Shown here: piece by piece, positions 28,537-51,860 of the stretch | Layout of the letters: each line of letters opens with the position of its first letter | Numbering within the stretch: the first letter of the stretch is position 1 | DNA from: a virus | Taxonomy: Duplodnaviria > Caudoviricetes | Length of the DNA stretch: 64,000 bases | Virus record (IMG/VR): IMGVR_UViG_3300043010_000145 | Reading direction: 5' to 3' (one strand) | The notes under the pieces: model-generated | What the model was told of the DNA's origin: nothing | Databases searched by the model: none | What the model saw: the letters and a program-made list of their open reading frames with translations, nothing else | Made by a program: the position numbers and the translations under genes

Positions 28537-28541
28537 ATGAG

Positions 28542-28730
28542 TGTATCTACTAAAAGAAACGCTGTAGATATATTTAGATTTTGCAAAATGTTTCAACACA
28601 TTCGGTACTTCTGTACCTAATGACAACTGTTCCGTCCAATTGCAGTTTATGAAATATTTTCGCCTAATCATTCGTTAAATTAAATATCCTCTTGAATTAG
28701 CGGTGTGGCCATCAAACACATCGCTTTTTC
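28542..28730 (+). ncRNA. Candidate structured small RNA
   Basis: Between promoter and terminator AGCGGTGTG/CACATCGCT-T run; several stems; no RBS-led ORF. Confidence 0.55.
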
Positions 28731-29414: not shown

Positions 29415-29574
29415 AAACCAAGGCAAAGCTAAATTTAGGCATAGATAAACCAAGGTAAAGCTAGAACTAGCCATAGCTAAATCAAGGCAAAGCTAGAACT
29501 AGCCGTAGCTAAACCAAGGCAAAGCTAGAACTAGCCGTAGCTAAATCAAGGCAAAGCTAGAACTAGCCGTAGCT
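29415..29574 (+). repeat. 5 x 32-bp iteron-like tandem repeat
   Basis: AAA(C/T)CAAGGCAAAGCTAGAACTAGCCGTAGCT consensus, between two GATAGGCG-led stem-loop elements. Confidence 0.85.
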
Positions 29575-30429: not shown

Positions 30430-30957
30430 ATGCCCAGCAAGAGAACCCCAGCCCATTTCTACACGAGAGGGAAATTTGGGAAGCGACTTCGAGAAGTCGC
30501 TGACCAAGAGAACCCCTACTTATATTCACAAGGAAGGTATGCAACGAAGTTGCAACCTTCCGACCTCCCCAATACTTACATATCTATTCACAGCAGAAGC
30601 TTATGGTACACCGAAGGCTTTATCCAAACAGCGAATGTCGTAGACATCTGCTACATACCGCTGCATCTAAATCATCTATTCAAAGATGACTATTTATACA
30701 TCAGTTATTCCGCAGACCGACCTCTGCAAATCGAGCCAACCCGATATGGCATTCCCGAATGCCTAAGCTACGACATATGTATCTGTGGCAATGACATACC
30801 GAAGCTGCTAGAAGCCATCGCTCTCAACTCCCCACACTGCCATAATCTCTCTGAGACCAAAGCCTCTGTGAAAGAGAAAGTAGAATGGTTTGCCACTCGT
30901 TACCCCGAGAGCTCTAAATCCATCAATTATCTGCATGAGCACTATGACTGGTTATAA
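30430..30957 (+). CDS. Hypothetical protein (175 aa)
   Basis: TATAAT -10 and GAAAGGAG RBS; non-repetitive protein sequence. Confidence 0.75.
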   Translation: MPSKRTPAHFYTRGKFGKRLREVADQENPYLYSQGRYATKLQPSDLPNTYISIHSRSLWYTEGFIQTANVVDICYIPLHLNHLFKDDYLYISYSADRPLQIEPTRYGIPECLSYDICICGNDIPKLLEAIALNSPHCHNLSETKASVKEKVEWFATRYPESSKSINYLHEHYDWL

Positions 30958-31150
30958 CCAGTCATTTTTATTACCTATCTCCAATATTCTCGCCTGTCTT
31001 TTATCGCCTGTCCTCTATCTCGCCTATCTGCTCTCGCCTGTCTGCTCTCGCCCGTCTATCCTTGTTGTAGTTCAGCCAGCCTATCCTATCCACCTAGCAC
31101 CACTTCTTCGGGTATCTTGTCGTAGCAGATGTTTCTGCCACCTTCTGCCT

Positions 31151-31220
31151 TGCCTTATCTTGCCTTATCTTGCCTTATCTTGCCTTATCTTGCCTTATCT
31201 TGCCTTATCTTGCCTTATCT
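31151..31220 (+). repeat. (TGCCTTATCT)x7 tandem repeat
   Basis: Direct reading. Confidence 0.95.
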
Positions 31221-31362
31221 TGCATCATTTCTATCTTGTAGGGTACTTTTGTCTTGGCTTAGCTTTATTCTCGCCTATCTCTATCTTGGCTTAGCTCTAT
31301 CTCTGCCTAGAAAGGCGGCCACGGTTCTCATTACATTTCGAACCTAAGACCCGCCTTTGTCT

Positions 31363-31520
31363 AGGCAAAGCAATCATTCAGGCAAAGCAATCATTCAGGC
31401 AAAGCAATCATTCAGGCAAAGCAATCATTCAGGCGAAGTAATTATTCAGGCGAAGTAATTATTCAGGCGAAGCAATTATTTAGGCGAAGTAATCTCTTGG
31501 CGAGTAATTATTTAGGAGAA
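31363..31520 (+). repeat. 17-bp tandem array AGGC(A/G)AAG(C/T)AAT(C/T)ATTC, about 9 units
   Basis: Four exact units then degenerate units. Confidence 0.9.
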
Positions 31521-33000
31521 GATACACCAAATGCTTGAAGTCCAGCACACTTCATCGGGTATCTTGTCATAGCAGATGTTTCAACAGACTGGTTATCTTG
31601 CCTTGCCTTGCACTATCTTGCCTTATTCCTATCTTGCAGTGTACTTCTGTTTTGTATTAGATTTACTCTTGCCTATCTTTATCTCAGTCTAGCTTTATTC
31701 TCGCCTATCTTTTGTCTTGGCTTAGCTTTTGTCTTGGCTTAGCTTTTGTCTTGGCTTAGCTTTTGTCTTGGCTTAGCTTCTGTATTGGCTAGCTATATCT
31801 AGGTATAGAAAGGCGGCCACCTTGGTAACTTCTCTATCCTCGTTACCCGCCTTTGTCTAGGCGAAGCATTTAACTAGGCGAAGCATTTAACTAGGCGAAG
31901 TAATGATTCAGGCTAAGTAATTATTCAGGCGAAGCAATCAACTCTGCATAAATATATCTGGCAAAGCATATTCTACTTGCATACAGCATGAATCAAGCAT
32001 CAGTCTATATCTGCATGCAGTGTTATTCTCGCCTGTCTGCTTTCTCGCCTGTCTATCCTCGCCTGTCTTTTCTCGCCTGTCTCTCCCTGTTGTAGTTCAG
32101 CCAGCCAGCCTATCTGCTCTCGCCTATCCTCCCACCTCCTCACTTCATTGGGTATCTTGCAGTAGCAGATGCTTCTACCTACTGGTTATCTTGCCTTGCC
32201 TTATCTTGCATCATTTCTATCTTGTAGGGTATTCTTGTCTGGGCTATCTTTTGTCTTAGCCTATCTTTATTCTTGCCTATCTTTATTCTTGCATATCTTT
32301 ATTCTTGGCTTAGCTCTATCTCTGTCTATCTTTATTCTCGCCTATCTTTTGTCTTGCCTTAGCTCTATCTCTGTCTATCTTTTGTCTTGCCTTAGCTCTA
32401 TCTCTGTCTATCTTTTGTCTTGCCTTAGCTCTATCTCTGTCTATCTTTTGTCTTGCCTATCTTTTGTCTTAGCCTAGCTATATCTAGGTATAGAAAGGCG
32501 GCCACGGTACTCCATTGCATTTCGTACCTAAGACCCGCCTTTGTCTAGGCGAAGCAATATTTAGGCAAAGCAATCATTTAGGCGAAGTTATTATCTAGGC
32601 AAAGTAATTAACTAGGCGAAGCAAACCATATATTTGCACACAGTACGGTTCTTGCATATACCCAACAAGGAGAAGCAATTGCAAGCAAGAATATGTTTGC
32701 ATGAAGCGATATCTACACCCGCCTTTGCATAGGTAACTAATTATTCAGGCACAGATATATTCAGGCGAAGCAATTAATCAGGCTGCTATACTGCACATCA
32801 TTTCTGCACCAAGAAAGCCTATATTTAGATATTTTTGTATCTTGCCTTACTATGTATCATCGCCTGATATAATCTCGCCTGTTTATTCTCGCCCTACACC
32901 ACTTCCTAGGGTATCCCTTCCACCCTTACAGTTGTGGCATACAGAAACACCTAGGCGGAGACGGATTTGCATACATATTATCTTCGCCCAGATTTATTTA

Positions 33001-33068
33001 TCGCCTGTACTTATTCTTCGCCTGTACTTATTCTTCGCCTGTACTTATTCTTCGCCTGTACTTATTCT
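33001..33068 (+). repeat. (TCGCCTGTACTTATTCT)x4
   Basis: Direct reading. Confidence 0.9.
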
Positions 33069-33545
33069 TCGCCTAGCTTTATCTCGCTTGCTATATTCTT
33101 GTCATAGTTTTAGCTTAGAAAAGGCGGTGGACATCGTTGCACGAGACCCACCGCCTTTGCCAATAGAAGCAGTCAGGTGCAGAAGATATAAGGAACAGTA
33201 TGAAGCAGTTCTAAGCAGGCATAAGGCACATAAACAAGGAGGGCAGGGTATTTACATCTAGCCACAGGCGAAACCTGGAATTGTACTATCTTGATGATAG
33301 CGGTGTTCGTGTATGGTTTTACAAGAAGCCTTCTCTAAGCCAAATAAAGGTTGCATGCAATTCTTCTAAATGCAGAAAATATCGCCGCTCGCACGAAGTA
33401 CGAGCGGCCCTCTGCATATGCACACAGCTAATATTGGAGCAGCCTTTCAGTTTTCACACAACAAACGGTTTCACATAGTATAATAAAAGTGAAACAACAC
33501 AACTCGTAAGCCAGCGGGTAATATTTCAAGGAGGAACAAGGAGAA

Positions 33546-34415
33546 ATGGCAAAAAACACAGTGAAGCAAGCAGGCGAATATGTCTGCAACGGCAAGTATT
33601 TTGTAAAAAGAGTACTAAAAGGTGGCGGAGACAGTCATATTTATCTAGCAACAGATGTAAAGTATGGTCAGGCATACTGCATCAAAGAATATGTGCACAA
33701 CAGTTCCGATGACGGTACCTTGCATGCAGGCAAGTTGATGCAGAAATTAAACCACCCCGCAATTCCCCGCATTATTTCCATTGAGCAAGAAGGCTACACA
33801 GATTACACAGTAATGGAATATGTGCAAGGAGATAATCTTCTTGACATAATTATTCTGGAAGAAGGTGGTTTGCCATTAGACAAAGCGGTGAATTATATGA
33901 AGCAGCTCTGTGGAGCGGTAGGGTATCTGCATGAAAAAACGGAAGGCAAGCCGGCGATTCTTTACAGAGACATGAAGCCTTTGAATATCATCATTTCGCC
34001 AGACGGAATGGTACATTTATTAGACTTTGATATAGCCGTAGAGCTTGAGGAAGAAGAAACAGGCGAGGCAGAAGTATCTATGGCAGCCAGTGAAAAGAAC
34101 ATCAACCGTCACCCAGTAGGAACACCTGGGTATGCCGCACCGGAGTTGTATCGCAAAGGTGCCAAGTATGATTTACGTTCCGATATTTTTGGATTAGGAG
34201 CAACATTCTACCATATGCTTACAGGGACTATTCCGAATCGGTATGTGAATTGCCGTGGTGAGTTAGAAAATCTTCCAAAAGTACATGATACCAAGCCAGA
34301 TATTCCGCCCGAAGTAGATGAAATTATAGATAAAGCTTTGAATACAGACATGGATAAGCGGTATGCAACTGTGTATGAGCTGTATCAGGCATTATGTGAA
34401 CTACCATATTGTTAA
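33546..34415 (+). CDS. Soluble Hanks-type Ser/Thr protein kinase
   Basis: GGGDSHIY, IKEY, YRDMKPLN, DFD, GTPGYAAPE, DIFGLG; AAGGAG RBS; terminator after. Confidence 0.9.
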   Translation: MAKNTVKQAGEYVCNGKYFVKRVLKGGGDSHIYLATDVKYGQAYCIKEYVHNSSDDGTLHAGKLMQKLNHPAIPRIISIEQEGYTDYTVMEYVQGDNLLDIIILEEGGLPLDKAVNYMKQLCGAVGYLHEKTEGKPAILYRDMKPLNIIISPDGMVHLLDFDIAVELEEEETGEAEVSMAASEKNINRHPVGTPGYAAPELYRKGAKYDLRSDIFGLGATFYHMLTGTIPNRYVNCRGELENLPKVHDTKPDIPPEVDEIIDKALNTDMDKRYATVYELYQALCELPYC

Positions 34416-35051
34416 TACAAACAAAAGGCTCGCCTACTGCGAGCCTTTTGTTGCATCTTATACTTATTTGTTGTGGCTTCTGCCTGCTCTACTATTACTT
34501 GGCATAGTTCCTGTGCACATTCATATTGGGTATTTCAACATTAGCGAAAATCAGGCAAACTTCACCTATGTGTAATGCAATCAGCCAAGCACAAAAAGCA
34601 GCCGAAGTCAACACTTCTCTTCACTTTTTATTTTTATCACATCACAACTCGTGTAGGTATACAATCAGGCAAAAGATAGTATCAGCTAGAGGAATATTAC
34701 TTTGGCGTCTTTAATGTGAAGTATATATGGGCGAAGATATTTTTTAGCACTAGTACCAGTCATACAAAGCAAGTAAACTTGCTTTGTATGACTATCTAGA
34801 TGAAGCAAGAATTCAAGTGGGGTTTTACTCTACAATAAGTCATTATTTTAATTTTAGCAATTGCCTTTAAGTAAAGCATATTAGGGTATGCATGCACTTT
34901 GGGTTGAATCTAATGCAAGCCCAATTTCTAATTCTAATTCTAATTCTAATGCAAATGAAAACACAGAAAAACTAACAAAGTAAAAAGCAAGCAGTACTTT
35001 GCTTGCTTTTTACTTAAATGTGGTTTCTAAATCTTGATACTCACCAAGCAC

Positions 35052-35221
35052 AAAAAAAGCAGCCTGTGGCTGCTGTAAACATGCTCGCTGTGAGCAATCC
35101 TGATTGCATCTGATGACAGATAGCTGCAATCGTACATCATTTTTCAGACTTTGGATTTGCAGTCCATTTTATATGTCAGAGCAGTTCTAAGGTACTTGTA
35201 CTAGCAATCATCCCCAAGTAC
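35052..35221 (-). ncRNA. Candidate structured small RNA
   Basis: TTGACT-17 nt-TATACT promoter (35228-35256, minus); terminator GCAGCC-aca-GGCTGC-T7; internal hairpins. Confidence 0.55.
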
Positions 35222-36197
35222 ATTCATAGTATAGCCCAGCCGCCAGCCAAAGTCAACACTTTTCTTCACTTTTTATATTTTATTGCATCACAACTTGTGC
35301 GGGTATTTTACAGGCAGAATACATCTTGAAGGAAAGGTATCTGGGCGAAGACAAATTATGCACGAGTTAGCCATACAAAGCGAGTTTACCTACCATAAGT
35401 AAGTTAACTTACTTATGGTAGGTGGCTGTATGGCTGGTTGGATGCAGGCAGAAATCAAGTGAAGTTCTAATCTACAAGCAGTTATTATTCAACACTAACA
35501 AACACCTTTAAATAAAGCACATTCTGGTATTTTTAACTAGTAAGCATTCACCAGAGTGATTTCTGGGTATACTTGTTAGCACTTGTCTTGATTTTTGCTT
35601 AGAGTGTATGCTCTCGTGCTTTATTTCGTAAAAGCTCGGAAACAGCAATTTCCGAGCTTCTGCAAGTCCAGAAACTGCACTATTTGAGCTTTTAGCAAAG
35701 TAACAACTTTATCTACTTTTTCTAAGGAAAGTCAGTTAATTTTAAAATACATCTTCACTCAGCCATACATCTGCATCTCACCAGCTACAAAAAGCAAGGC
35801 ACCTTGCTTTTTGTAGCTAATCTCGTGCCAGCCACCTACCAGAAGCAAGAGACCTTGCTTCTGGTAGGTAGTCTTCGCCTAGCTCAATCTCTCATATTGT
35901 CATTTTATTAAGCAAGGGCGGACCCGAAGACAAGCTCATTACATTCGCTTACTTCTACACCCGCCCTTTGCTTGTTGTAGTTTCTGCCTGATGTAGTTTC
36001 TTACTTGTCGTAATTTCTTCTTGCCCTAGTTTCTGCTAGCTGCCTTCTTTGCCCACAGTAATTTCTGCCCGCTCAGCTCTTGTCTTGCCCTATCTATTAT
36101 ATTCTTGCAGAACTTCAGTCTAACACTCTTCACATTTTATAGCTAATAATCAAGGAATATAAAAAGCCACATCGTAGATGTGGCTTTATTTCTTCAC

Positions 36198-36941
36198 CTA
36201 AATATTAAACCCCTCAGGAGCATCAGGCCAAGCAGCCTGATAGAAGGCCATCTTACCATTTTCATCAAAGAAGAGGCGAAAAGCACCATAAGGCATATCT
36301 GTTGTATAATCCAGAACCATTTCCTTTTTTCTTGCCTTAGCAAATTCACTCAGTTTAGTTACCAACTCAGCAAAGTCGATATCAGCATACGGAGCACCCC
36401 AAGCAAAGTTCAGTTTGTTGCCCGAACCTTCCATATAGCAATCTTCCAACATATCCCAATTAGCAATTTCTTGCACCGCATCGCTGTCTGCTGTAATGCA
36501 AGCCATACCATCTGTTTCATACTGTACCGCAGAGCTATGTTGTGCAATCACAGACTGGGTATCTACATAATCTTCCAACTTAGCTTCATTCGGCAGCACC
36601 ATAGTATCCCAATCCCAAACAACATCGCAGCCGTACTCATCCTCCTGAGCATAGATTCTTTTAGCGAATGGCAAGCCTAGTTTGTTTTTCTTACCATTGT
36701 CGTGATATTCCGCCACAACTTGCAAGTTCGGGTATAGGGAAGTCATATGAGTAATATGACCAATGATTTCTTGCACATCATTGACACAATACACAAGGTA
36801 TTCTGCCGTAGCATGCAGACAATCATTCTTCAATATTACAGAGGAACAGTATTGTTTGAATTCTCTTTTCATTGTTTTTACTGCATCAAGCACATCGCCT
36901 GTTCCATTTGAGAATAAGTGTATCGTTAAATTCAGTTGCAT
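36198..36941 (-). CDS. Hypothetical protein, paralog of 38542-39243 (start MQLNL after GAAAGGAG)
   Basis: Shared T..YP....IYA and C-terminal G.[FY]R.FF..NGK...Y.A.[WF]PD pattern. Confidence 0.8.
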   Translation of the reverse strand: MQLNLTIHLFSNGTGDVLDAVKTMKREFKQYCSSVILKNDCLHATAEYLVYCVNDVQEIIGHITHMTSLYPNLQVVAEYHDNGKKNKLGLPFAKRIYAQEDEYGCDVVWDWDTMVLPNEAKLEDYVDTQSVIAQHSSAVQYETDGMACITADSDAVQEIANWDMLEDCYMEGSGNKLNFAWGAPYADIDFAELVTKLSEFAKARKKEMVLDYTTDMPYGAFRLFFDENGKMAFYQAAWPDAPEGFNI

Positions 36942-38541
36942 TGTTTTTCTCCTTTCTTGCATCTTCATCTATGTATTTGCAAGTTTTTATCTTTTTCTAT
37001 ATTTATATATTAGCACAGTATAGTTTTATTTGCAAATATTTATTCAATAATTAGTACGATATAGATAAGTACTCGCATAGCAAAGTTCGGGTATTTTCAG
37101 GCGGAGTCAGATTCAGGCGAAGATATGTTTAGCACGAGTTAGCCATACAAAGCAAGTTTCCTTGCTTTGTATGGCTAGGTAGATGAAGCAAGAATTCAAG
37201 TGAAGTGTTCCTCTACAATCAGTCATTATTCCAATTTAGCAATCACCTTTACATAAATTCCCAGCTATGCAAAGCAAATTTATTTTGCTTTGTATAGCTA
37301 ATCGTTCTTACAGAATGATTATTTGGGTATTCTTAGCCAGCAGACATTCACCAGAGCGATTTCTAGGGTCACATGTTACCACTTGTCTTGATTTTTGCTT
37401 AGAGTATATGCTCACGGGCTTTATTTCGTAAAAATGCGGAGAGTGAACTCTCCGCATTTGCAGAAACTCGGAAATTGCACTATTTGGACTTTTAGAAAAG
37501 ATACGGCTTTATCTACTTTTTCTAAGAAAATGTGGCTTAACACACCACGATACTGCCACAGGCAGTTAATTTTTGAGTACATCTTCACTTAACCACATAT
37601 TTTCATCCATCCAAGGATATGTGCAATCCACCTACCAGAAGCAAGGTCTCTTGCTTCTGGTAGGTGTTCTTCGCCTAGCTCCACCTCTGCCTAGCTTTAT
37701 ATCTAAACAAACAAGGGCGGACCCGAAGACAAGCTCATTACATTCGCTTGCTTCTAAACCCGCCCTTGCTTGCCGTAGTTTCTTGCTTGCCGTAGTTTCT
37801 TGCTTGTTGCAGTTTCTTCGCTCCCTTATGGCATCTACTGTGGGGATGCTTGCCATAGCTTTTGCCTGTTGCAATTATTTCTTATTGTATTTTTCACTTG
37901 CTCTATATTTATCTTGCCCACTATTCCTCCTCCCTTTTGCCTGCTTCACTTCATCGGGTATTTTGTAAGCAATTTGTTTTCTAACCTAGCAGATAAGGTA
38001 TATGTACCGAAACATAGCAAGCTATGAATTACATAAGGCAGTAAGCAAAAGTTCGGCGGGTACGACAGTTAGGCGAAGCTGCATTATGCACGAGCCAGCC
38101 ATACCAAGCGAGTTTTCTCGCTTGGTATGGACAGTTAGATGTATGCAGAAACCAAGTGAAGTTGTATCTAAAATCATCCAGTATTCAATACAAGCAATCA
38201 CCTTTATATAAAGTATATTGGGGTATTTTCAAACAGCAGACATTCACCAGAGTGATTTCTAGGTGCACTTATTACCACTTGTCTTGATTTTTGCTTCAAG
38301 TATGCACTCACGAGCTTTATTTCGTAAAAGCTCGGAAACTGCGATTTCCGAGCTTGCAGAACATCAGAAATTGCACTATTTGAGCTTTTAGATAAGGAAC
38401 AACTTTATCTAATTTTTTCTAAGAAAAGACAGTTAATTTCTGAATAAATCTTCTCTCAGCCAAGGAACTTCATCCAGCCAATTCTCGTGCTAGGTAATTT
38501 CTCCGCCCAACAAAAAACCATGCCGAACGGCATGGTTTTAT

Positions 38542-39243
38542 TTATTTCAAATCTTTCACAACTAAATCAGGGAATTCAGCCTTATAAGAATCCACTTTAC
38601 CATTCTTAAAGAAGAATCTGTAATATCCATCCCATGTATCTGATTCCAGTTCCAGCTTAATCATCTTTTCCGTATGCTTGCTTGCTTCCAACAGCAGTCT
38701 CAGCAGCGGTTCTAATTCCAACTCACAGCTTCCGTCATCATAGAAAGTCAGGCATTTGCCAGTCCAGTTGCCATTATATCCATCAGCCATATACTCAGGC
38801 AAGCCAACAGTGTTCAATGCTCTTTTTGGAGCATAGATGCAGCCGCTTACAACTTCAAAAACGGAAGGAATTTCCAACTCAATATGCAAAAGCAGGCATT
38901 TATCCAAGGCAACAAAATCTTTTTCCTTTGGTTCTTTAGGCAGATACAAATAGTAGGTTGCTCTTTTCTTGCCAAGTGCATAAATTACATAGCTGTGGTC
39001 TTCGTGCAAATCCGGGTTGAATGCTTGCAAACTGAACAGCACATCTGGGTATACCTTAGTAATTTCGTCCAGCAGCCAGTTTACCCAGTACTGTGTAGAC
39101 CAGTCCAAGCTTTTGTAATCAGACCAGCTATACGATGCAAAGTTTCTGATAAAATCCTCATTTGGTAAAAGTGATTGAAGTGTGCCTCCCACATTTTCCG
39201 TTTTTTGCGGGTCGGAAAGCAGTTCTAATACATACATTGCCAT
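38542..39243 (-). CDS. Hypothetical protein (233 aa); its 5' end is matched by the mini-array 2 spacer
   Basis: AAAGGAG RBS; terminator at ~38512-38540. Confidence 0.8.
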   Translation of the reverse strand: MAMYVLELLSDPQKTENVGGTLQSLLPNEDFIRNFASYSWSDYKSLDWSTQYWVNWLLDEITKVYPDVLFSLQAFNPDLHEDHSYVIYALGKKRATYYLYLPKEPKEKDFVALDKCLLLHIELEIPSVFEVVSGCIYAPKRALNTVGLPEYMADGYNGNWTGKCLTFYDDGSCELELEPLLRLLLEASKHTEKMIKLELESDTWDGYYRFFFKNGKVDSYKAEFPDLVVKDLK

Positions 39244-39689
39244 TTTAATTAACTCCTTTTATTCATTCTCAGGGTATTCCACCCTCGTCTCTATCTGTAA
39301 TTATCTTACTATATTTTCTATCCTTTTTCAAGTGGTATGTAAGAATATTTATGAAATAGTATAGAATAATTTTATATTCACACACATCTTTGCTCAGGAA
39401 GTTTTTCTAAAAAAACCGCTTGCATTCACCTTCTATCTGTGATATATTATGGTTGCCCTCCGAAGAGGACAGTTATTTTTTTTGGACATGTTAAGACAAA
39501 AGCCACAGCGAATGCTGTGGCTTTTGTCTTTTAGTATTCATATTCTTCATCTTCGTCAGTTTCTACTGGCTCGTAAATCTTATATCTAGGTGTTGCATAT
39601 AGTTTTGCTTTTCATATGTAGTTCTTCTCCTTTTCAACTATTTCAATGTCGTACTAATTTTTTTTGTAAAAATTTAAATCATTTTTTTA

Positions 39690-39718
39690 TTGCATACTTA
39701 TTTTATTTGTGGTATACT
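39690..39718 (+). promoter_or_regulatory. sigmaA promoter for leader RNA/mini-array 2
   Basis: TTGCAT-17 nt-TATACT with extended TG. Confidence 0.75.
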
Positions 39719-39724
39719 TTAAAC

Positions 39725-39868
39725 AGACAAGGAAAAGCATTAGATATTAGGGTGCTTGGGTGAAAAACCTAAGTGAGCCCCGCACGGGCGGGGAAATCCT
39801 ATATTATTTAAAGCTAGCAAAATGATATAGGTCAGTAAAAGTGCACGTTTACTGCAATGCTTTCCTTC
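39725..39868 (+). ncRNA. Conserved structured leader RNA, copy 2, with embedded repeat-like unit at 39773-39799
   Basis: Closing stem AAGGAAAAGCAUU/AAUGCUUUCCUU; hairpins CCUAUAUUAUUU/AAAUGAUAUAGG and CAGUAAA/UUUACUG; GTGAGCCCCGCACGGGCGGGGAAATCC. Confidence 0.7.
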
Positions 39869-39998
39869 TAAAGATGTCAGGCTTGGGAACTAGTATGTCT
39901 TAACTATTCGATTGGAAAACACAGATATGTTGCAAATTTGCGGATTTGTAACAAGGTATACCAAGTTAAGTATGAAAACGGAAAAGCATCTTTCTAGT

Positions 39999-40108
39999 AC
40001 TTGCCCCATAAGGGTGGGAATGTTTCTGTATGTATTAGAACTACTTGTTGACCGTTTGCCCCGCACGGGCGGGGATATGTTTCTTGTTTCAACAATCTAT
40101 ACAAGTTG
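39999..40108 (+). CRISPR. Orphan type I-E-like mini-array 2: degenerate repeat (39999-40027), 26-nt spacer (40028-40053), repeat (40054-40084), short terminal spacer
   Basis: ACTTGCCCCATAAGGGTGGGAATGTTTCT and GTTTGCCCCGCACGGGCGGGGATATGTTTCT; preceded by AT-rich leader ending TTTCTAGT. Confidence 0.8.
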
Positions 40109-40135
40109 GCACTCCGCAAATGCGGAGTGTTTTTT
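40109..40135 (+). terminator. Intrinsic terminator closing mini-array 2
   Basis: GCACTCCGC-aaat-GCGGAGTGT + T run. Confidence 0.85.
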
Positions 40136-40203
40136 CTATTGTCTAACAAGATAAAGCAGCGATACCTCGACACATAGGTCGGACTTCGCTGCTTTATCTT
40201 GTA

Positions 40204-40763
40204 TCAGATTTTATCTAACCATAACATTTGTTTTGTAGCAGATTTCACCTCGCTACAGTCTTTGTTTTGTACTAGATTTTGTCTAGTCGCAATCTTTATT
40301 TTGTTCCAGTATTTATCTTGTCCTATTTTCTCTACTCCACCTCTTCTGCCAGCACCAAACATTCTATGCATCAGCATTATACCCATACTATGATATTCTG
40401 CACCACCAGTAGAAGCACAGCAATCCTCTATTACAATAGGAATAATACCCGCATCCCAGAGCGAAATAGCACAGGCAAGCACACAAATTCCCAGCTATGC
40501 AAAGCAAATTTAGTTTGCTTTGCATAGCTAATTATTCTGTTAGAATAATTGCAAGTAAGCTCCTGTTCCGTAGCAGATTCCATTTTCATCCAACCTATTG
40601 CTTTTTCGTAGATACTTCCTTGTTCATTCTTGAATTGGGTACAAATTACGGTATCAAATTTCTTATTAGCAACCAGCTTCTGTATTCTTTCTGCACAAAC
40701 TTTTGTGTTTTCGTCTAAAAGAAAGCCTTGTTGTACATCTACAATCAGTAATATCTTCTGCAT
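40204..40763 (-). pseudogene. Isochorismatase/cysteine hydrolase pseudogene disrupted by a palindromic element at ~40486-40532
   Basis: LLIVDVQQGF in one frame, CVLACAISLWDAGIIPIVIEDCCAS in another; intervening conserved segment missing. Confidence 0.8.
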
Positions 40764-42956: not shown

Positions 42957-45900
42957 TTGGATAAATTAAAACGAACAGTATTGTTCTTATTTCTTGGAAT
43001 TCTAGTATTAGCAGATACTAGTATGTCTATTTTCGCAGCGGGAAGTAGAGCGGCTGACGTAATTTGGGGCGATATACGAACATATTCACAAGAGGACATG
43101 CCTTATTTAAGTGATGCAATCACAGCGGGAAATATAAGTTATTCAACGGCTTATCAAAGAGGTCGTTCCTCCTCAGATACAGTTAAGACAAGTGTATATC
43201 AGAGCCAGAGGTTTAGTTCTGAGTATTCCAGTGGTTATTTTGCACCACAAGCAGGTCGTGAAATGGCGGGATTATCTAGTACGGCTGCAAGTACGGGTAA
43301 AGTTAGTTTAGGTTATTCATGGACATATAATGGTGAAGCATCCTATTGGTATAGCAACACGGTATGTTGGAATTTCACAAATACAGCTTATAACTCAAAT
43401 ATATTTGTTTATTATAAGCAAGGGGCTTTTTATAAGGGTGAGTATTATGATGTTAAGGTGTATTATTGGATGGAAAAGACATCTGGTCTTGATACTTCTT
43501 ATAAAGTGTATTCTAGCGGCTCTGTACAGGTTGTAGTAGATGCTAATGGGGATACTGCAAGACAAGCCTGTAGTCAGGTACATATGAAGATGTATTTCTT
43601 TAAGTCAGATGATACAAATGTAACATTCACGGATAGTACAGACAAAAGTAATAATGGTGAGGGTTATAAATTAGCAACTTATTCTACTGTGCCTGCTAAT
43701 TCTAAGGCTGCTGAGTTCAAAGGTGTTCTTTGTATAACAGATATGGACGCTGGCGAGGGTATGTACTTTAAGAGTGGTGTAGCGAGTGCTGCAAATGTTT
43801 ATTTGTCATCCAATACATTTATACGTAGGGTGCATTCTGACTCAGATATGCATGGTGCTTTTAATGAATATTATAATACAGGTTATACTAGTGAATTAGA
43901 CACAGGTAGTTTGTATGGTGTTGTTGCATCGGAGAATGCTAGCTCAAATCTGTCTACATTACTTAAAGAATATATTGCAGACGGGATGAATGCATCTACT
44001 AAGAAATTCCCATTAGGAACAAGTACAGTTGCTTCAACCTTACAATCTGGTTATGATACTGGTTTAATGTATGTGAGTGCATTTAGTAATGTGAGCCCGG
44101 ATTCTTCGAATAGCTTGTTAGGTAATGAGCCTGAATATATGTCTATGTGGGCAGAGTTTTTTTCATCATATTCTACACCAACGGAATTGGTTTATTTTAC
44201 GCCAAGTTCTCGTGGTGCAGACATTGGTTACCGAGGTGTGAATATTAACTATCAGAGTGTAGTTGTAGATAATGACTGTCTCCAAACTACTGCTAAAAAA
44301 TCTAAGGAGCTGGCAGCAGACCATGCAACTGCTTACGGTTCTTATCCTGTAACAAACGCTAGTTCTGCGTATGCTCAGGCACAGAGTGTTTATGGTTCCA
44401 ATTATACTGTTGAGGGTATTTATGCAGATTCAACATTAAAAACAAAGTATACTAGTGAGGATATTATAAAATTAACAGATGAAGATATTACATTATATGT
44501 AAAGATAATACCTACATATACTGTTACTGCGAAATCTTCTACTGGGGGCGTTACAGTTACACCGTCTAGTACTACATTGGCAGAGGGTGATTCTTGTAAA
44601 ATATCTTGGACTGCCCAAACTGGGTATGTAATTGCGGATATTACTGTTACAGCTCAACAAACAACAGCTGCCTATGGCCTAGTTAGTTTAGGTGGCGAAT
44701 CACATGGTGTAACTAGTACGTATACAATGCCATCCAGTAATACTGTTACAGGTGGTTATGTTACTATTACAGAAAAAGACCAAGCCGCCACAGGAAGTAC
44801 ACATAACACACATCGAAATTATGTTGTGAATGTAAGAGCAGTGCCTATAACCACGGATACTGTGGAAAGTTCTTATCAGTATGAAGTGCCTGTAACCTTT
44901 AATCTGACAAAAACAGATTCAGGAGATTCTACGGTATTACTGCAAGGAGCTACATATAGTTTAAGTCCATATAAGGCATTATCAGGTTCAACTTCTTATA
45001 GTGCTGTAACGTCTGCAAATAGTACGGCTACAACAAGCAGCACGGGAAAAATATCGAAAAAGTTTACAGTTGCCTCAGGTACATCTAGTACGTATTCTAC
45101 TTCTATAAAGTATATTCAGTCATCTGATATACTATCTTCATATAGTTCAACGGCTCAGAAGAATTTATTTGAAACAGCTTATAAGAGTACTTATACAGAA
45201 TCAACAGTACGAGCGAATGCTGAATCAACAAATGTAACAAGTTTCACAAATTGGCTTACGTCCAGTAAATTGGTTGGCAGCAAGATACAAGTAAAATACA
45301 CAGAAACAACTGCACCGACAGGTTATCAGTTATCTTCTACTACGAAAACTAGTTCTTCTGCTACGGTGGGTAGTTTTTCAGCAGGCACAGATGGTGTTTA
45401 TAGACCAACAACTGCATTGACAATAACAGCAACAGATACAAATACACCGTATAGCGGTACAAGACAAGAAGCGAATTATTCTTGTAATTATCTTGTTTAT
45501 GTTCCTATAACCGTAACCTTAACTAAGAAAGATGCAGGTACAAGTGATTTATTATCTGGTGCTAAATTCAGTATGTCTAGTGCCATTACGACCAATTCCT
45601 CCGGTGTAACATTAAGTTTAACAAACAATACTGCAACGGCTACAACCAATACAAATGGAACATTAACGTTTACCTTCCAAGTAAAAGGTTCTTTCACAAA
45701 GAATCTCACATATTATTATTACGATATGGATTCCTTGACAGGTTCAGCTAAAACTGCAGCACAAGCAGACGTGAATGCAAATTCCAATGTGTATGCAACT
45801 AAAGATGAAGCAACAAAAGCAGTTCAAGCAGCAGTTCTAGCAGAAGCAAATGCTACTGCAACCAAGCTGAGTAATGTAGTTATAACTGTTTCAGCTAAAG

Positions 45901-48900
45901 AAACTACTGCACCTACGGGGTATGATTTACCTAGTTCTGCTACAACTACTAAAACTGTAACATTAGGAACATTGCCTTACGATTCTTCCACTACGAGTTA
46001 TGGAACTACTGTAACTTCCTCTATGACTGTTACAGATACGGCTACGGCAGGCACAACAGCTACGGCATCTAAAACACAGACTTATACTTATGAAATTCCT
46101 ACAAGTTTAGTTATTACAAAAACAGATGCTACATCAAATTCTGCTTTATCTGGTGCTGTTTTTTCTGTAACTAGTACTGCAACAGATTCTACAAAGACGT
46201 TAACAAGTGAAACTACAAACACACAATCCGTTACAACAAATAGCAGTGGTAAAGCAACGTATTCTAATACATTGACAGGCTCTTTCACATTGACAACAAA
46301 GAATTATACGTATTATACGAATTATTCTTCGTTAAAGGGTTCTGCATTAAAAGATGCAAATAATGCAATTAATAACACAACAGTTTTCAAAACAAAATCA
46401 GAAGCTGAAGCTGCCGCTGATTCCGAATTAGCAACACTGCTTTCATCTAAGCAAACAGATTTAAAGAATATTGCGGTTACATTCTCTGCTAAGGAAACAA
46501 CTGCACCCAGTGGTTATGCTTTAGATACAACAACACATACATCTTCCAGCATTAAATCATCAGCATTTACAACTTCTGGTACGAAATTAACTGGTTCTAT
46601 ATCTACAACTATGTCCGTAACAGACACTCCATCAGGTGGTTCCTTGTCTGTTTTGACTGCACAAACAAAGCAGTATAACTACACAATTCCAGTGTCTATT
46701 AAATTAACTAAGAAGGATTCTACTACTAATGATGCTCTTGCTAATGCTACATTTACTGTAGTGAGCAAGTTTGGTTCTGAATCTTACGGTAATTCTGTCT
46801 CCAAAACGACAGATGAAAACGGTTTATTAACAGCAACTAGAAATATTACAGGTACAATTTCTGTTACAACATCCGCTTATTTGTATTATACAGATTATTC
46901 TAGCCTCGTAAGCTCTGCAAAAACGGAAGCAGATACAAAGATAGCCAATGGTGAAGCTTATAAAACGAAAGAAGATGCACAGGCTGCCGCTGATGCAGAA
47001 TTGCCTAATTTGGTTAAAGCAAAGTTAGCTTCCTCCGTTACGAGTCAAGCGATTCAGGCAAAAGCAACAGAAACAAAAGCACCATCAGGGTATACGTTAG
47101 ATACTACTGCACATGAAAGCAGTAAAGTGTATCCTAGCAATTATACTCTATCTGGAACAACTGCAACGTATTCAACTGTATCCGTGGATATTGGTACAGT
47201 TACAAATGATGCAGCAGGTGCAGCTACGGCACAGGTAGAAGCTACTACAAAAGAATATACCTACAGTATTCCTGTAAGTATTTCTTTAACGAAAACAGAC
47301 GCTGATTCTGGTAATTTGTTGAGTGGTGCAGTTTTTGATATTACAACGAAAGGTGCTTCCGATACAACGTTTACAAGAAAACAGTCTAAAACAACAGATT
47401 CGAATGGTGCAATAACCACAACGGACACTATTACAGGGAAATTCTCAGTTACATCTAAGGCGTATAAGTATTATGTAGATTATGATTCACTTGTAAGCAC
47501 TGTCAAGACAGAGGCAGATAAAAAAATTGCAAGTGGTGAGATGTATAAAGATGAAACGGCAGCCAGAGCTGCCATGCTTGCTTCTTTGCCTAGTCTAGCA
47601 GAAGAATATCTTAAAACAAATATTTCTGCGGTTGCATTACAGGCACAAGCAATAGAAACCACAGCACCAGCAGGGTATGAACTTGATGCTACTGCACATA
47701 CAAGTAAAGAGGTTAAGCCAACAACGTATTCTTTATCTGACACTGTATTTACATATGATACTGTGGCTTTACAAATAGGTACAATTACAAATGAGCCAAA
47801 AGGTGCAGCAACATCTACATTGTCATCTGTAACACAAAATTATTCGTATACAATTCCCCTGCAAATTACTTTGACAAAGAAGGATTCAGATTCTGACAAT
47901 CTGTTACAAGGTGCGGTATTTGATATCACCACAAAGTCTGCCACAGATTCTAGTTTTACAAGAAAACAATCAAAGACAACAGATAATAACGGTGCTATTT
48001 CTACTGCGGATACAGTCAATGGTACCTTTACAATAACGTCTAATACATTTAAGTATTATGATGATTATGATTCTCTTGTAGGTACAGTAAAAGACGAAGC
48101 AGATAAGAAAATAGCGTCTAATCAAGTTTATAAAACAAAAGCAGATGCACAAGCAGCACAAGCTGCTTCATTACCCGTTCTTGCAAAGGAGTATGTTGAA
48201 GCAAATATTTCTGCAAAAGGAATTCAAGCACAGGCAATAGAAACAACAGCACCTGACGGATATACATTAGATACAACTGTACATACAAGTGAGGAAGTTA
48301 AACCTGATAAGTATACATTATCTGGCACAACTTTCACATACAATACTGTAACATTACCTATTGGTACAGTTATAAACACACCAAAAGGAGCTTCTGTTTC
48401 TACCGTAGCTGCCATTGAAAAGCAGTATTCGTATGTAATTCCTTTACAAGTTACTTTGACCAAGAAAGATTCCAGTACATCTTCCTTGTTAAAAGGTGCT
48501 ACATTTGACATTACAACTAAGGGATTGAATGATGTTGACTTTACAAGGAAACAAACAAAAACAACGGATACTAATGGAAGTATTATTGTAACAGACAGTA
48601 TAAATGGTACATTTAAGGTTAAATCCAAGGAATTTAAATACTATGATGATTATAATGCACTTGTAAGTACAGTTAAAGAAAATGCAGATAAGAAAATTGC
48701 TGCGGGAGAGATGTATAAAACAAAAGCAGATGCAGAGGCTGCCCAAGCCGCTTCGATTCCAGTATTAGCTACGGAATATCTCGCAAATAATATTTCCACG
48801 GAATCTATTCAGGCTCAGGCAATAGAAACAGCAGCACCTGACGGGTATACATTAGACACAACTGCACACCTTAGTAAAGAAGTTACACCAAGCAAATATT

Positions 48901-51860
48901 CTTTAACAGATTCTGTATTTACGTATGAAACTGTAAATTTAGATATTGGAGATATTACAAACACACCTAAAGGTGCAACAATTTCTACAATAGAACCAGT
49001 TACAACCACGTATACTTACACTATACCTATGTCTGTAACCTTAACAAAGAAAGATTCTACTGCGGATATTATGTTGGCGGATGCAAATTATACTTTGTCT
49101 ACAAAAACTTTGAAAGATTCAGACTTTGTTCGTAGTCAGAATGCTACCACAGATAAGAATGGCTCTTTAAATGTATTGGATTCTGTAAGTGGTACGTTTG
49201 ATGTAAAAACTTCTTCTTATAAGTATTATGATGACTATGACGCACTGGTAAGCACTGTAAAAGAAGAAGCAGATAAGAAAATTGCAGCCAACGAAGTATA
49301 TAAAACAAAAGCAGATGCACAGGCTGCACAAGCAGCTTCTATTCCAGTATTAGCTAAGAATTATGTAGAAAATAATATTTCAACGGAAGTCATACAGGCA
49401 AAAGCAGTGGAAACTAAGGCACCTAGTGGGTATGTATTGGACACAACAGAACATGTTAGTAAAGAAGTAAAACCAACAAAATATACTTTGACAGATACTA
49501 CTTTTATGTATGATACTGTGAATTTAAGCATAGGAACTTTAACGAATACACCTAAGTCTGCTGATGTAGAAACATTGAATGAAGTTACAACAAAGTATAC
49601 TTATACTATACCAATGTCTGTAACGTTAACAAAGAAAGATGCTACCGCTGATATTCTGCTGGCAGATGCTAGTTACACCTTGGCTACAAAGACTTTGCTA
49701 GATGCAGATTTTTCAAGAGCACAAGTGTCTGCTACAAATGAAGATGGAGTTTTAACTGTGAACGATAGTGTCAGTGGGGAATTTAGTGTAACAACATCTT
49801 CTTATAGCTATTATACAGACTATGATTCTTTGGTTAGTACAGTGAAGGAAGACGCAGATAGTAAAATTGCGGCTAAGGAAGTATATAAGACAAAAGAAGA
49901 TGCACAGGTTGCATTAAATGCGTCTATACCAGTTCTTGCTAAACTTTATCTTGAAAAGAATATTTCATCACAAGATATTCAAGCTAGTGCTACGGAAATT
50001 AAAGCACCTGATGGGTATGTAGTAGATTCAGAAGTGCATATTAGTGATGCAGTTAAACCAACAAATTCAACTTTGACAAATACAGAATTCACGTATGATA
50101 AAGTTTCCTTGAATATTGGTACTTTAACAAATACGCCTAAGCCCGCAGTAGTTGATGAGTTAGATGCTCAAACAAAAGAATATTCCTATAATTTACCAGT
50201 AGATATACAGTTAGTGAATCAAGATGTAGATACTGAGGAGCCCTTGATTGGTTCAGATTTTACTATTACATCTGCCACTTCTCAGAAAGATAGTTCTTTT
50301 GCGGAAACTTATAATGAAACAACAAATGAAGTCGGCAAAATTAACTTATCTCGGGAAATCACGAATAAATTCACTGTAACGTCTAGTTCTTACAAATATT
50401 ACGATGATTACGATGCACTTGTAAGTACTGTAAAAGCAGAAGCAGATGAAAAGATTGCAAATAATGAAATTTATCAGTCTAAGGAAACTGCACAAGCAGC
50501 TCTTGAAGAAGAACAAGAAAAGCTTGCCAATCAGTATATGACGAATAATATTTCAACTACAACACTACAATCTACTGCAAAACAAACGAAAGCTGCTACA
50601 CCTTATGTTCTTAATACAGAGACCTATGAGTTGAATGATGTTCCAATGACGAACTATGCTTTTGACGAAGATACAAATACCTTCAATTATGAAACAGTAA
50701 TTATGGATTATAAAGTTGTAAATAATTTGAAGTATCTTGTGGAATTAGTGAATATAGAGAATGAAGTATTAGAAGGTGCAGAATTCCAGATTCAAGATGT
50801 AAATGGTACTGTAATTGACGAATGGGTATCCTCCGAAGAGCCACATGCTATACCGGAACTCGTAGATAATCAAACATATACAATTGTAGAGGTGAAAGCA
50901 CCACAAGGCTATGTTTTAGCAAATTCAACTACATTTGAAACGATTGATGAACATAATACAAAGATAACCATTGTAAACGGTAAGTATAGTGTATCTCTTG
51001 TAGATTCCCAAGAAGAAACTATCGAAGGTGCAAAATTCCAGCTTTTAGATGAAGAAGGTAATATCTTAGAAGAATGGGTATCTACCGAAGATGTTTATAT
51101 TCCTGATTCTTTAACTGTTGGTAAAACGTATACTATTGTTGAAACATATACGCCAACTGGATTTAATCAAATGCAGCCTTATACATTCACAGTAGCAAAT
51201 GAAAATGAAGCTATTGTTTTAAAGAATAATTGCACAAGTATCTATAAGAAAACTTCCACGGGCAAAGCCGTGGTAGGTGCTGCATTACAGATACAAGACG
51301 AGGAAGGTAATGTAATTGATAGCTGGCTAAGTGGTCAACAAGTTGTTTCACTTGAGGATTCCGTAGTTAAAGAAGCAAATGAAAAGGGTATTGCATATAT
51401 TGTAAAACCTGATATTTCAGAGAATTCAACTGAAGAAACTATACCGTCTGATGAAGATTTAGCTATTATTATTATGCAGAAGGTTAAGCCAACAACAACC
51501 GAAAATACATATGTTTTGATAACAGAATATTCTGACGGTAATTGGACTTATCAAGAAGTTGATAGTAAAGGTATTGAATTAGGACATAGAGCAAATCTTA
51601 TCTCTGATACCAATTATGAACTTGTGGAAACTAAAGCACCAGATGGTTTTGAACTTGCTTCTAATATGAGTTTTATTGCAAAAGCCGATACAGATTATTC
51701 TGTAACAATGATTGATGAATATAAAGTAGAAGCTGCAATTCATAAGCTAGCTACGGGTATTCATTCTAACATTACATATATTGCAGTTGGTTTCGCAGCC
51801 ATTGTAATTCTTGTCGTTATTTTTGTTTTGCGAAAGAAAAAACATACTGCCACAAACTAG
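42957..51860 (+). CDS. Giant cell-surface protein (2967 aa): N-terminal head, ~200-aa SpaA/CnaB-like repeats, C-terminal sorting signal
   Basis: Signal peptide; repeated LTKKD..L.GA.F...ET.AP.GY.L..TN; KLATG + TM + basic tail. Confidence 0.9.
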   Translation: MDKLKRTVLFLFLGILVLADTSMSIFAAGSRAADVIWGDIRTYSQEDMPYLSDAITAGNISYSTAYQRGRSSSDTVKTSVYQSQRFSSEYSSGYFAPQAGREMAGLSSTAASTGKVSLGYSWTYNGEASYWYSNTVCWNFTNTAYNSNIFVYYKQGAFYKGEYYDVKVYYWMEKTSGLDTSYKVYSSGSVQVVVDANGDTARQACSQVHMKMYFFKSDDTNVTFTDSTDKSNNGEGYKLATYSTVPANSKAAEFKGVLCITDMDAGEGMYFKSGVASAANVYLSSNTFIRRVHSDSDMHGAFNEYYNTGYTSELDTGSLYGVVASENASSNLSTLLKEYIADGMNASTKKFPLGTSTVASTLQSGYDTGLMYVSAFSNVSPDSSNSLLGNEPEYMSMWAEFFSSYSTPTELVYFTPSSRGADIGYRGVNINYQSVVVDNDCLQTTAKKSKELAADHATAYGSYPVTNASSAYAQAQSVYGSNYTVEGIYADSTLKTKYTSEDIIKLTDEDITLYVKIIPTYTVTAKSSTGGVTVTPSSTTLAEGDSCKISWTAQTGYVIADITVTAQQTTAAYGLVSLGGESHGVTSTYTMPSSNTVTGGYVTITEKDQAATGSTHNTHRNYVVNVRAVPITTDTVESSYQYEVPVTFNLTKTDSGDSTVLLQGATYSLSPYKALSGSTSYSAVTSANSTATTSSTGKISKKFTVASGTSSTYSTSIKYIQSSDILSSYSSTAQKNLFETAYKSTYTESTVRANAESTNVTSFTNWLTSSKLVGSKIQVKYTETTAPTGYQLSSTTKTSSSATVGSFSAGTDGVYRPTTALTITATDTNTPYSGTRQEANYSCNYLVYVPITVTLTKKDAGTSDLLSGAKFSMSSAITTNSSGVTLSLTNNTATATTNTNGTLTFTFQVKGSFTKNLTYYYYDMDSLTGSAKTAAQADVNANSNVYATKDEATKAVQAAVLAEANATATKLSNVVITVSAKETTAPTGYDLPSSATTTKTVTLGTLPYDSSTTSYGTTVTSSMTVTDTATAGTTATASKTQTYTYEIPTSLVITKTDATSNSALSGAVFSVTSTATDSTKTLTSETTNTQSVTTNSSGKATYSNTLTGSFTLTTKNYTYYTNYSSLKGSALKDANNAINNTTVFKTKSEAEAAADSELATLLSSKQTDLKNIAVTFSAKETTAPSGYALDTTTHTSSSIKSSAFTTSGTKLTGSISTTMSVTDTPSGGSLSVLTAQTKQYNYTIPVSIKLTKKDSTTNDALANATFTVVSKFGSESYGNSVSKTTDENGLLTATRNITGTISVTTSAYLYYTDYSSLVSSAKTEADTKIANGEAYKTKEDAQAAADAELPNLVKAKLASSVTSQAIQAKATETKAPSGYTLDTTAHESSKVYPSNYTLSGTTATYSTVSVDIGTVTNDAAGAATAQVEATTKEYTYSIPVSISLTKTDADSGNLLSGAVFDITTKGASDTTFTRKQSKTTDSNGAITTTDTITGKFSVTSKAYKYYVDYDSLVSTVKTEADKKIASGEMYKDETAARAAMLASLPSLAEEYLKTNISAVALQAQAIETTAPAGYELDATAHTSKEVKPTTYSLSDTVFTYDTVALQIGTITNEPKGAATSTLSSVTQNYSYTIPLQITLTKKDSDSDNLLQGAVFDITTKSATDSSFTRKQSKTTDNNGAISTADTVNGTFTITSNTFKYYDDYDSLVGTVKDEADKKIASNQVYKTKADAQAAQAASLPVLAKEYVEANISAKGIQAQAIETTAPDGYTLDTTVHTSEEVKPDKYTLSGTTFTYNTVTLPIGTVINTPKGASVSTVAAIEKQYSYVIPLQVTLTKKDSSTSSLLKGATFDITTKGLNDVDFTRKQTKTTDTNGSIIVTDSINGTFKVKSKEFKYYDDYNALVSTVKENADKKIAAGEMYKTKADAEAAQAASIPVLATEYLANNISTESIQAQAIETAAPDGYTLDTTAHLSKEVTPSKYSLTDSVFTYETVNLDIGDITNTPKGATISTIEPVTTTYTYTIPMSVTLTKKDSTADIMLADANYTLSTKTLKDSDFVRSQNATTDKNGSLNVLDSVSGTFDVKTSSYKYYDDYDALVSTVKEEADKKIAANEVYKTKADAQAAQAASIPVLAKNYVENNISTEVIQAKAVETKAPSGYVLDTTEHVSKEVKPTKYTLTDTTFMYDTVNLSIGTLTNTPKSADVETLNEVTTKYTYTIPMSVTLTKKDATADILLADASYTLATKTLLDADFSRAQVSATNEDGVLTVNDSVSGEFSVTTSSYSYYTDYDSLVSTVKEDADSKIAAKEVYKTKEDAQVALNASIPVLAKLYLEKNISSQDIQASATEIKAPDGYVVDSEVHISDAVKPTNSTLTNTEFTYDKVSLNIGTLTNTPKPAVVDELDAQTKEYSYNLPVDIQLVNQDVDTEEPLIGSDFTITSATSQKDSSFAETYNETTNEVGKINLSREITNKFTVTSSSYKYYDDYDALVSTVKAEADEKIANNEIYQSKETAQAALEEEQEKLANQYMTNNISTTTLQSTAKQTKAATPYVLNTETYELNDVPMTNYAFDEDTNTFNYETVIMDYKVVNNLKYLVELVNIENEVLEGAEFQIQDVNGTVIDEWVSSEEPHAIPELVDNQTYTIVEVKAPQGYVLANSTTFETIDEHNTKITIVNGKYSVSLVDSQEETIEGAKFQLLDEEGNILEEWVSTEDVYIPDSLTVGKTYTIVETYTPTGFNQMQPYTFTVANENEAIVLKNNCTSIYKKTSTGKAVVGAALQIQDEEGNVIDSWLSGQQVVSLEDSVVKEANEKGIAYIVKPDISENSTEETIPSDEDLAIIIMQKVKPTTTENTYVLITEYSDGNWTYQEVDSKGIELGHRANLISDTNYELVETKAPDGFELASNMSFIAKADTDYSVTMIDEYKVEAAIHKLATGIHSNITYIAVGFAAIVILVVIFVLRKKKHTATN

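Follow-up and report, generated by a model that had tools for sequence, protein, structure and literature searches.

The locus raises the question of what a strongly folding segment of ~140 nt does at the front of short CRISPR-like units. In a preliminary description of the window, the whole 64,000-nt stretch of DNA that was analysed, positions 39725-39868 were presented as a multi-stem RNA standing by itself, with a second copy at 654-790. The multi-stem segment is indeed found there, at 39729-39867 on the plus strand (copy 2; MFE -49.8 kcal/mol, z -5.5), and the second copy proved to be its paralogue, situated at 789-655 on the minus strand and 79% identical to it (copy 1). A third copy was reached by exact-protein look-ups along the contig beyond the window; it lies at L008 12064-12204, ~9.5 kb past the window end on the same contig, and a profile of the three copies detected no further one in ~135 kb of contig. 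All three belong to a single contig of an uncultured Bacillota organism, each located just 3' of a predicted promoter. The stand-alone reading did not hold: every copy forms the 5' part of a predicted transcription unit, in which it is followed by I-E-like repeats, a guide and a terminator, and it is referred to here as the head.

The heads share a fold composed of a closing helix, a variable stem 2 and two hairpins, stems 3 and 4. RNAalifold, applied to the three copies, returned a closing helix of 12 pairs, stem 2, stem 3 with 12 pairs and stem 4 with 7 pairs. In copy 2, the closing helix is formed by AAGGAAAAGCAUU (39729-39741) and AAUGCUUUCCUU (39856-39867), arms of 13 and 12 nt; stem 3 is a 12-bp helix (39798-39809/39820-39831) with the loop AAAGCUAGCA, and stem 4 a 7-bp helix (39833-39839/39848-39854) with the loop AGUGCACG. 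These three helices were read where they had first been described. Stem 2 (39754-39761/39767-39774, plus strand) varies among the heads; the pairing first proposed for it in both window copies is well formed only in copy 1. Conservation is strong in the promoter and the closing helix and above all in the 3' half of the head, which comprises stems 3 and 4.

The consensus structure places standard pairs in 94.7% of cells, compared with 36-48% when the partners are slid by 1-3 columns. Two pairs changed cleanly on both sides, each time by double transversion: in copy 1 a G-C of the closing helix is replaced by U-A, and in copy 3 a C-G of stem 3 by A-U. The first is the swap that had been reported earlier; of the compensatory changes claimed between copies 1 and 2, it survives as one clean double compensation, confined to that single pair, the stem 3 changes between these copies being one-sided. 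Four one-sided changes retain pairing through G.U or G-C, and in stem 4 of copy 3 the changes C-G to U.G and A-U to G.U keep the pairing only in the RNA of the sense strand. The closing helix of copy 3 contains two uncompensated mismatches, and a one-sided change in stem 3 of copy 1 produces a C.A mismatch. Across the three copies, the observed covariation was reached by 21 of 500 column shuffles. Its support is weak because only three sequences are available, all of them paralogues of one genome; it is suggestive of an RNA fold and falls short of proof.

Folding energies were compared between strands. The sense strand folds better in copy 2 (MFE -49.8 against -39.8 kcal/mol for the antisense) and in copy 3 (-31.9 against -17.3 kcal/mol), and the antisense strand in copy 1 (-32.3 for the sense against -38.7 kcal/mol). 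As single-stranded RNA, copy 2 adopts the multi-stem fold as its MFE structure; the MFE structure of copy 1 departs from it, while its centroid and full-length fold show it. The closed head domain persists in the full-transcript folds of units 1 and 2, and in that of unit 3 stems 3 and 4 are kept and the closing helix is lost. Prediction of long-range duplexes between head and tail was uninformative. Taken as predictions, these folds make a genuine conserved structure plausible, most securely for stems 3 and 4, although with three paralogues it is statistically unproven.

The segment had been called unrecognised, and this was borne out by the search against Rfam 15, which gave no match at the gathering threshold over the whole window and none on the head even at E<=10 (39600-40200). 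No credible ORF was found in the head, the only frames inside it being unconserved ones of 20-26 aa; a small-protein reading was rejected, as a 57-aa frame at 39590-39763 overlaps just the first 35 nt. In blastn searches the unit was compared with plasmids and phages and the array with plasmids; these yielded nothing or chance matches. Exact and degenerate patterns (stem 4; the stem 3 loop with stem 4; the repeat) revealed no homologue among viral contigs, nor did such searches of metagenome contigs find one of the head or the repeat; the stem 4 pattern matched two genome contigs, L001 and L002, and both matches were judged to be due to chance. The repeat, sought in 401 sampled Clostridia genomes, was not found in those searched. 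Two JGI metagenomes (3300035506 and 3300043085) and two Logan assemblies contain the DNA itself at 100% identity and so contribute no variation.

Upstream of the head, GTGGTATACT is invariant in all three units and reads as a TG-extended -10; the conserved extended -10 promoter TGGTATACT precedes every head, with a predicted -35 of the form TTGCNN located 16-17 nt upstream of it. The predicted promoter of unit 2 (39690-39718, plus strand) consists of TTGCAT, 17 nt and the TG-extended -10 TATACT, placing the start near 39725, and that of unit 1 (800-827, minus strand) of TTGCTT, 16 nt and TATACT. A simple consensus promoter scan did not call the unit 2 promoter, its -35 being weak; transcription and its start site are therefore what we infer from conservation. 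The closing helix would begin ~4 nt from the predicted 5' end of the transcript.

The three units differ downstream of the head. In unit 1 (window 633-474, minus strand) the head is followed after 21 nt by a mini-array at 474-633, composed of a repeat (633-605), a 32-nt spacer (604-573), a second repeat (572-543), a terminal stretch of 34 nt (542-509) and a terminator (508-474). Unit 2 carries, in order, the head, a poorly conserved linker of ~60 nt and a leader module of ~55 nt (together 39868-39998, the module at ~39935-39990), a degenerate repeat psiR1 (39999-40027), a 26-nt guide (40028-40053), the repeat R2 (40054-40084), and a guide-like stretch of 24 nt with an intrinsic terminator (40085-40135; hairpin 40108-40131, then a T run), all on the plus strand. 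Unit 3, which as a whole occupies L008 12015-12420 (~73.45-73.86 kb in window numbering), comprises head, linker, leader module, a single repeat and 71 nt running into the terminator. Since the downstream sequence differs while promoter and head are common to all three, the head is the constant part of the units. In pairwise alignment the leader module is ~85% identical between units 2 and 3 (39935-39990; L008 12235-12290) and absent from unit 1; it has a hairpin of 9 bp, GUUGCAAAU/AUUUGUAAC, and after it the palindrome GGTATACC. A separate observation concerns the unit 2 terminator (window 40104-40135), in which GTTGGCACTCC...GGAGTG shares arms and 5' flank with the repeat of the type I-C arrays on the same contig, GTTGCACTCC...GGAGTGC; for the arms GCACTCC/GGAGTG no other such site exists in the window, and chance would give 0. 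A MITE was also considered as the origin of the copies and rejected: there are only three, in constant context, and the homology runs through the promoter and ~20 nt downstream.

The placement in unit 1, where 21 nt separate the head from the first repeat, is that of a CRISPR leader, and the element could act as DNA, its palindromes binding a dimeric regulator or the spacer-integration machinery. Stem 4, a near-perfect palindrome of 22 bp, would suit such a role. In units 2 and 3, however, the head lies 85-130 nt from the repeat, which is abutted by another module; a compensatory change in arms 115 nt apart indicates folding of a single strand and not an operator; for copies 2 and 3, pairing that depends on G.U points to the sense RNA; and profile and array comparison revealed no similarity of the head to the leaders of the contig's I-C arrays. 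We regard a DNA-level function as very unlikely.

The repeats of the units are I-E-like, ~29 nt long, with a CCCCGC-N4-GCGGGG hairpin and an 8-nt handle ATGTTTCY; we take them to be of subtype I-E by comparison with the E. coli repeat. Six such repeats occur in the ~135 kb that could be read, and 6/6 lie downstream of a head, within the three units. The repeat hairpin CCCCGCACGGGCGGGG has four sites in the window (552, 613, 39778 and 40059) against 0.02 expected by chance. The repeat cores of unit 1, at 613 and 552, have a 61-nt period and a 32-nt spacer between them, with the handle ATGTTTCC. In unit 2, psiR1 consists of CCCCAUAAGGGUGGGA plus AUGUUUCU and is orthologous to the single repeat of unit 3, with one stem pair compensated between them, and R2 bears a 2-nt insertion in its handle, AUAUGUUUCU.

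The fourth hairpin site lies within head copy 2 and belongs to an embedded I-E-like repeat, R0 (39773-39801, plus strand). A full repeat hairpin had been noted there earlier, rightly so: 39778-39793 is identical to the working repeats at 40059, 613 and 552. R0 has 19 nt in common with them, and its flanks differ, with GTGAG on the 5' side and AAATCCTA on the 3' side in place of the ATGTTTCY handle. Copy 1 (GCATATGCAGGG), in which the deleted version described before was recovered in degenerate form, and copy 3 (GCAATTTAGAACGGTGGA) both carry a disrupted counterpart, leaving R0 intact in one of three copies. To judge from these sequences, an intact putative Cas6e site in the head is a peculiarity of copy 2, not a conserved feature; it may have been maintained, or refreshed by conversion from the repeat 281 nt downstream.

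R0 recalls the Racrs, promoter-proximal solitary repeat units carried by mobile elements; for RacrIF1, Cas7 is described as binding the segment between start site and repeat (PMC10651486). By analogy, the head with a repeat hairpin, either R0 (copy 2) or, in every copy, the first repeat of the array, might bind the I-E Cas6e of the host, and perhaps Cas7, so that dead-end complexes lower interference. A hairpin identical to the working repeats lies ~55 nt from the promoter, whose TGGTATACT is ~60 nt upstream and thus inside the 250-bp distance used for Racrs; no I-E cas genes adjoin it in the annotated parts of the contig; and the 16-nt hairpin has stayed unchanged despite 20-30% divergence of the copies, which suggests maintenance or gene conversion. 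This reading, which had been put forward for the segment, is nevertheless not supported as a conserved function, R0 being destroyed in two of three copies and followed, where intact, by AAATCCTA, unlike the ATGTTTCY handle. Furthermore, R0 is not solitary, as psiR1 and R2 follow within unit 2; the tightly paired region upstream of it would be a poor substrate for Cas7 coating; and blocking the Cas proteins would sit badly with the apparently usable guides of the units, which depend on them too. A Racr-like decoy is on balance unlikely.

The remnants of R0 in all copies suggest an array-like ancestor, and the head could instead be a relic with no function of its own, a decayed repeat/palindromic pseudo-spacer/repeat series or a piece of palindromic DNA that duplicates along with the promoter. 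Among changes that preserve pairing on one strand, G.U in the sense occurs in 6 cells and A.C (G.U in the antisense) in 3, roughly as expected for transitions in an unselected palindrome, and a 44-nt block identical between copies 1 and 2 is consistent with gene conversion. On the other side, the linker beside the head has diverged far more than the head between units 2 and 3: head and leader module are conserved while the intervening linker has diverged, with indels amounting to ~30 nt, which argues for constraint on the head and against purely neutral hitch-hiking. The two double-transversion compensations speak against a relic as well. Stem 4 with the 3' arm was also tried as a degenerate repeat, with which it shares GCACG (ATGCTTTCC versus ATGTTTCC), and this similarity is not significant (p = 0.18). 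A relic is possible, though we do not hold it to be probable.

Next to the heads, the guides resemble neighbouring genes. The unit 1 spacer matches 1067-1036, in the 3' part of the upstream gene 999-1496, at 25/32 positions, with mismatches at positions 3, 4 and 6 and the 5' flank AGC. The 26-nt guide of unit 2 matches codons 3-11 of the divergent gene 38542-39243 at 22/26 positions, the first 15 nt being perfect and the 5' flank AAT. The tail of unit 3, which begins right after AAT, repeats in frame and in diverged form (41/56) the final codons of the upstream gene together with its stop. All three run in the sense direction of the matched gene, from which they differ by what look like synonymous or conservative codon changes; no significant match was obtained anywhere for the terminal guide-like stretches of units 1 and 2. 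Each unit directly adjoins the gene that its guide resembles (474-1496; 38542-40135; L008 11527-12420), and the 'guide' of unit 3 is a gene tail, in frame but displaced, which gives the impression of recombination between spacer and protospacer. The neighbour genes (165, 233 and 103 aa) found no homologue but themselves in 5.8 billion proteins. The 165- and 233-aa products matched no Pfam or NCBIfam family and nothing in PHROGs; the 103-aa product has a weak match to phrog_2920 (E 0.0008), whose function is not known. The published view is that mini-arrays of mobile elements are directed against relatives of the carrying element (PMC11656645), and the matches to neighbouring genes appear to fit this pattern.

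The guides also bear on the proposal that the head encodes a CreT-like RNA toxin restrained by an adjacent crRNA-like guide. Its position beside a unit with a degenerate repeat and a short spacer recalls creA, and a mini-frame AUG-AUA-UAG can be read in stem 3. The defining features of such a toxin, a Shine-Dalgarno sequence with AUG and tandem rare codons, and a guide directed against its own promoter, were looked for and are missing: the head has no Shine-Dalgarno sequence and no tandem rare codons, its AUG is buried in a helix, and the internal or single guides match coding regions of neighbours, none of them the head or its promoter. Nor is the head in or beside a cognate cas operon, the sole cas locus found being of type I-C, ~58 kb away and with a different repeat. 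The toxin reading is extremely unlikely.

A further feature of the fold is the sequence of the two hairpin loops. Their hexamers, GCUAGC and GUGCAC, are perfect palindromes, invariant in all three copies while adjacent loop bases vary; they are predicted to be unpaired in full-length transcript folds (probability 0.68-0.99), and the computed self-duplex energy is ~ -8 kcal/mol for each. GUGCAC with flanking purines is the dimerisation initiation site loop of HIV-1 in some subtypes, and the likeness raises the idea of a self-associating or trans-acting RNA, in which the loops would form kissing dimers or chains and the released head would serve as a scaffold, a sequestering body or a regulator. 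Against this, the whole 3' half is highly conserved, and 12 invariant nt there are not significant alone; a palindromic loop centre arises trivially in a hairpin derived from a DNA palindrome; and both hexamers have ordinary frequencies in the window, being neither unusually rare nor common. The same ordinary frequencies led us to reject a restriction-site account of the palindromes. Self-association as the function of the head is doubtful. We think it quite unlikely, moreover, that the head is an accessory domain combining the two properties, with kissing-loop self-association and a repeat hairpin by which it would tether or concentrate Cas6e/Cascade of the host on the guide transcripts of the element, or else sequester them; if true, it would represent a new class of RNA domain accompanying mobile guides, a structured RNA hijacking the type I system of the host.

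Any function that involves I-E proteins depends on their source. No I-E cas genes were present in the annotated parts of the contig, namely ~1-28.4 kb, 33546-34415 and 36-61 kb of the window, the last apart from the two large adhesin ORFs 42957-51860 and 52614-58283, and 61-106 kb; the units would therefore need I-E proteins supplied by the host or by an unread part of the genome. A single cas locus was found on the contig, ~58 kb downstream: an adaptation-less system of type I-C (cas3-cas5d-csd1-cas7), whose repeat GTTGCACTCCATACGGAGTGCGTGGATTGAAAT is unrelated to those of the units. It corresponds to window ~97-106 kb, with the cas genes at L016 13599-19408 between arrays at 12500-13560 and 19650-20760; no cas1, cas2 or cas4 lies between the two arrays, the cas3 has no recognised HD domain, and the two array leaders are near-identical. 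Two stand-alone Cas3_HD genes are located ~20 kb upstream of this locus (L008 17216-18109 and 18573-19688).

Pfam scans of the window, covering most ORFs of at least 100 aa in these parts up to 61 kb, revealed weak VirB4-like and FtsK-like ATPases, DNA methyltransferases, an AlwI-type nuclease, PARP/WGR, TelA/TerD, a P-type ATPase and a Ser/Thr kinase. The units are probably carried by a mobile element. For most other window proteins, the family was undetectable or the matches were very weak. Several other features of the window were recorded. A C-5 cytosine DNA methyltransferase gene (15337-17953) is split by an intein with Hint and intein splicing domains. The ~5 kb at 28500-33500 is almost devoid of long ORFs and holds tandem repeats of 10-, 16- and 17-nt period on both strands, for example CTTGCCTTAT x7 and arrays of CATTCAGGCAAAGCAAT. 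A family of near-perfect hairpin palindromes of 37-42 nt, such as AGCTATGCAAAGCAAATTTAGTTTGCTTTGCATAGCT and ACCTACCAGAAGCAAG...CTTGCTTCTGGTAGGT, lies between small genes (34758-37666; 40493-40529). The giant ORFs 42957-51860 (2967 aa) and 52614-58283 (1889 aa) are built of 585-nt repeats, the former bearing a precomputed SpaA-domain annotation.

Considering the position of the head in all three units, we tentatively favour, from predicted structure, the view that it is a cis-acting 5' folding and stability domain of the mini-array transcripts. This reading is supported because the head is common to the three units, its fold is consistent among them and the sense strand folds better in copies 2 and 3. 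In Bacillota, 5'-terminal structures protect RNA, and RNase J degrades from the 5' end. The head, as a closed multi-helix junction, would act in cis on the RNA of its own unit, protecting the start of the pre-crRNA-like transcript against 5'-end-dependent decay and keeping upstream sequence from mispairing with the repeat hairpins. Host-supplied Cas6e and Cascade would then process the transcript and load the guides, and cleavage at the first repeat would set the head free as a stable 5' fragment with a Cas6e-bound hairpin at its end; both the stability role and the involvement of Cas6e are presumed here. A simple hairpin would suffice to protect a 5' end, and the cis-stability reading leaves the 140-nt junction and the palindromic loops unexplained.

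The 5' stabilisers of Bacillota mRNAs, such as the ermC and aprE leaders, are single hairpins that place a stable helix a few nt from the 5' end; the head likewise has a helix near its 5' end, but is a four- or five-helix junction with conserved loops. To our knowledge, a structured 140-nt domain between promoter and repeats is not described for mini-arrays or solitary repeat units, and a conserved structured head on such units appears not to have been reported before. Mini-arrays and solitary repeats of mobile elements are tools of inter-element conflict, including anti-CRISPR activity, and so far they have been viewed simply as repeats with spacers; a conserved structured RNA domain joined to them would be a further component, be it for stability, processing control, Cas sequestration or multimerisation. 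The head could also inform the design of compact guide-expression cassettes. With three paralogues from a single uncultured genome, the finding is a lead and not a result.

Among known systems, the closest counterparts are the mini-CRISPR arrays and solitary repeat units of viruses and plasmids (PMC11656645; PMC6858448), which, like the units described here, lack neighbouring cognate cas genes and carry either one to two spacers or just a single repeat. Further likenesses are the element-like DNA, the guides that resemble the element's own genes, i.e., alleles in related elements, and a repeat that differs from that of the element's own cas locus. Unlike in known mini-arrays, every unit here directly adjoins the gene that its guide resembles. 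With the Racrs (Camara-Wilpert et al. 2023, PMC10651486), copy 2 shares a promoter-proximal, spacerless repeat-like hairpin, R0, on a putative mobile element; in contrast to them, R0 is unconserved among the copies, sits inside a larger fold, is followed by further repeats and guides, and has a different handle.

CreA, CreR, Cracr and the SRU-derived crlRNAs (10.1101/2024.10.29.618823; 10.1101/2024.12.27.630466) resemble the downstream guides of the units, not the head. The likeness consists of degenerate repeats, a shortened spacer, perfect PAM-proximal pairing to a nearby gene, and units made of a single repeat, a guide and a 3' hairpin. I-E Cracrs have pseudo-spacers of 21-24 nt (preprint 10.1101/2024.10.29.618823), and by analogy the 26-nt guide of unit 2 would fit such crRNA-like regulators. 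Unlike in these regulators, the targets are coding regions (gene 3' ends for units 1 and 3) and not promoters, and the guide mismatches look like allelic coding differences. Overall, the units are a variant of the known mini-arrays and solitary-repeat RNAs of mobile elements.
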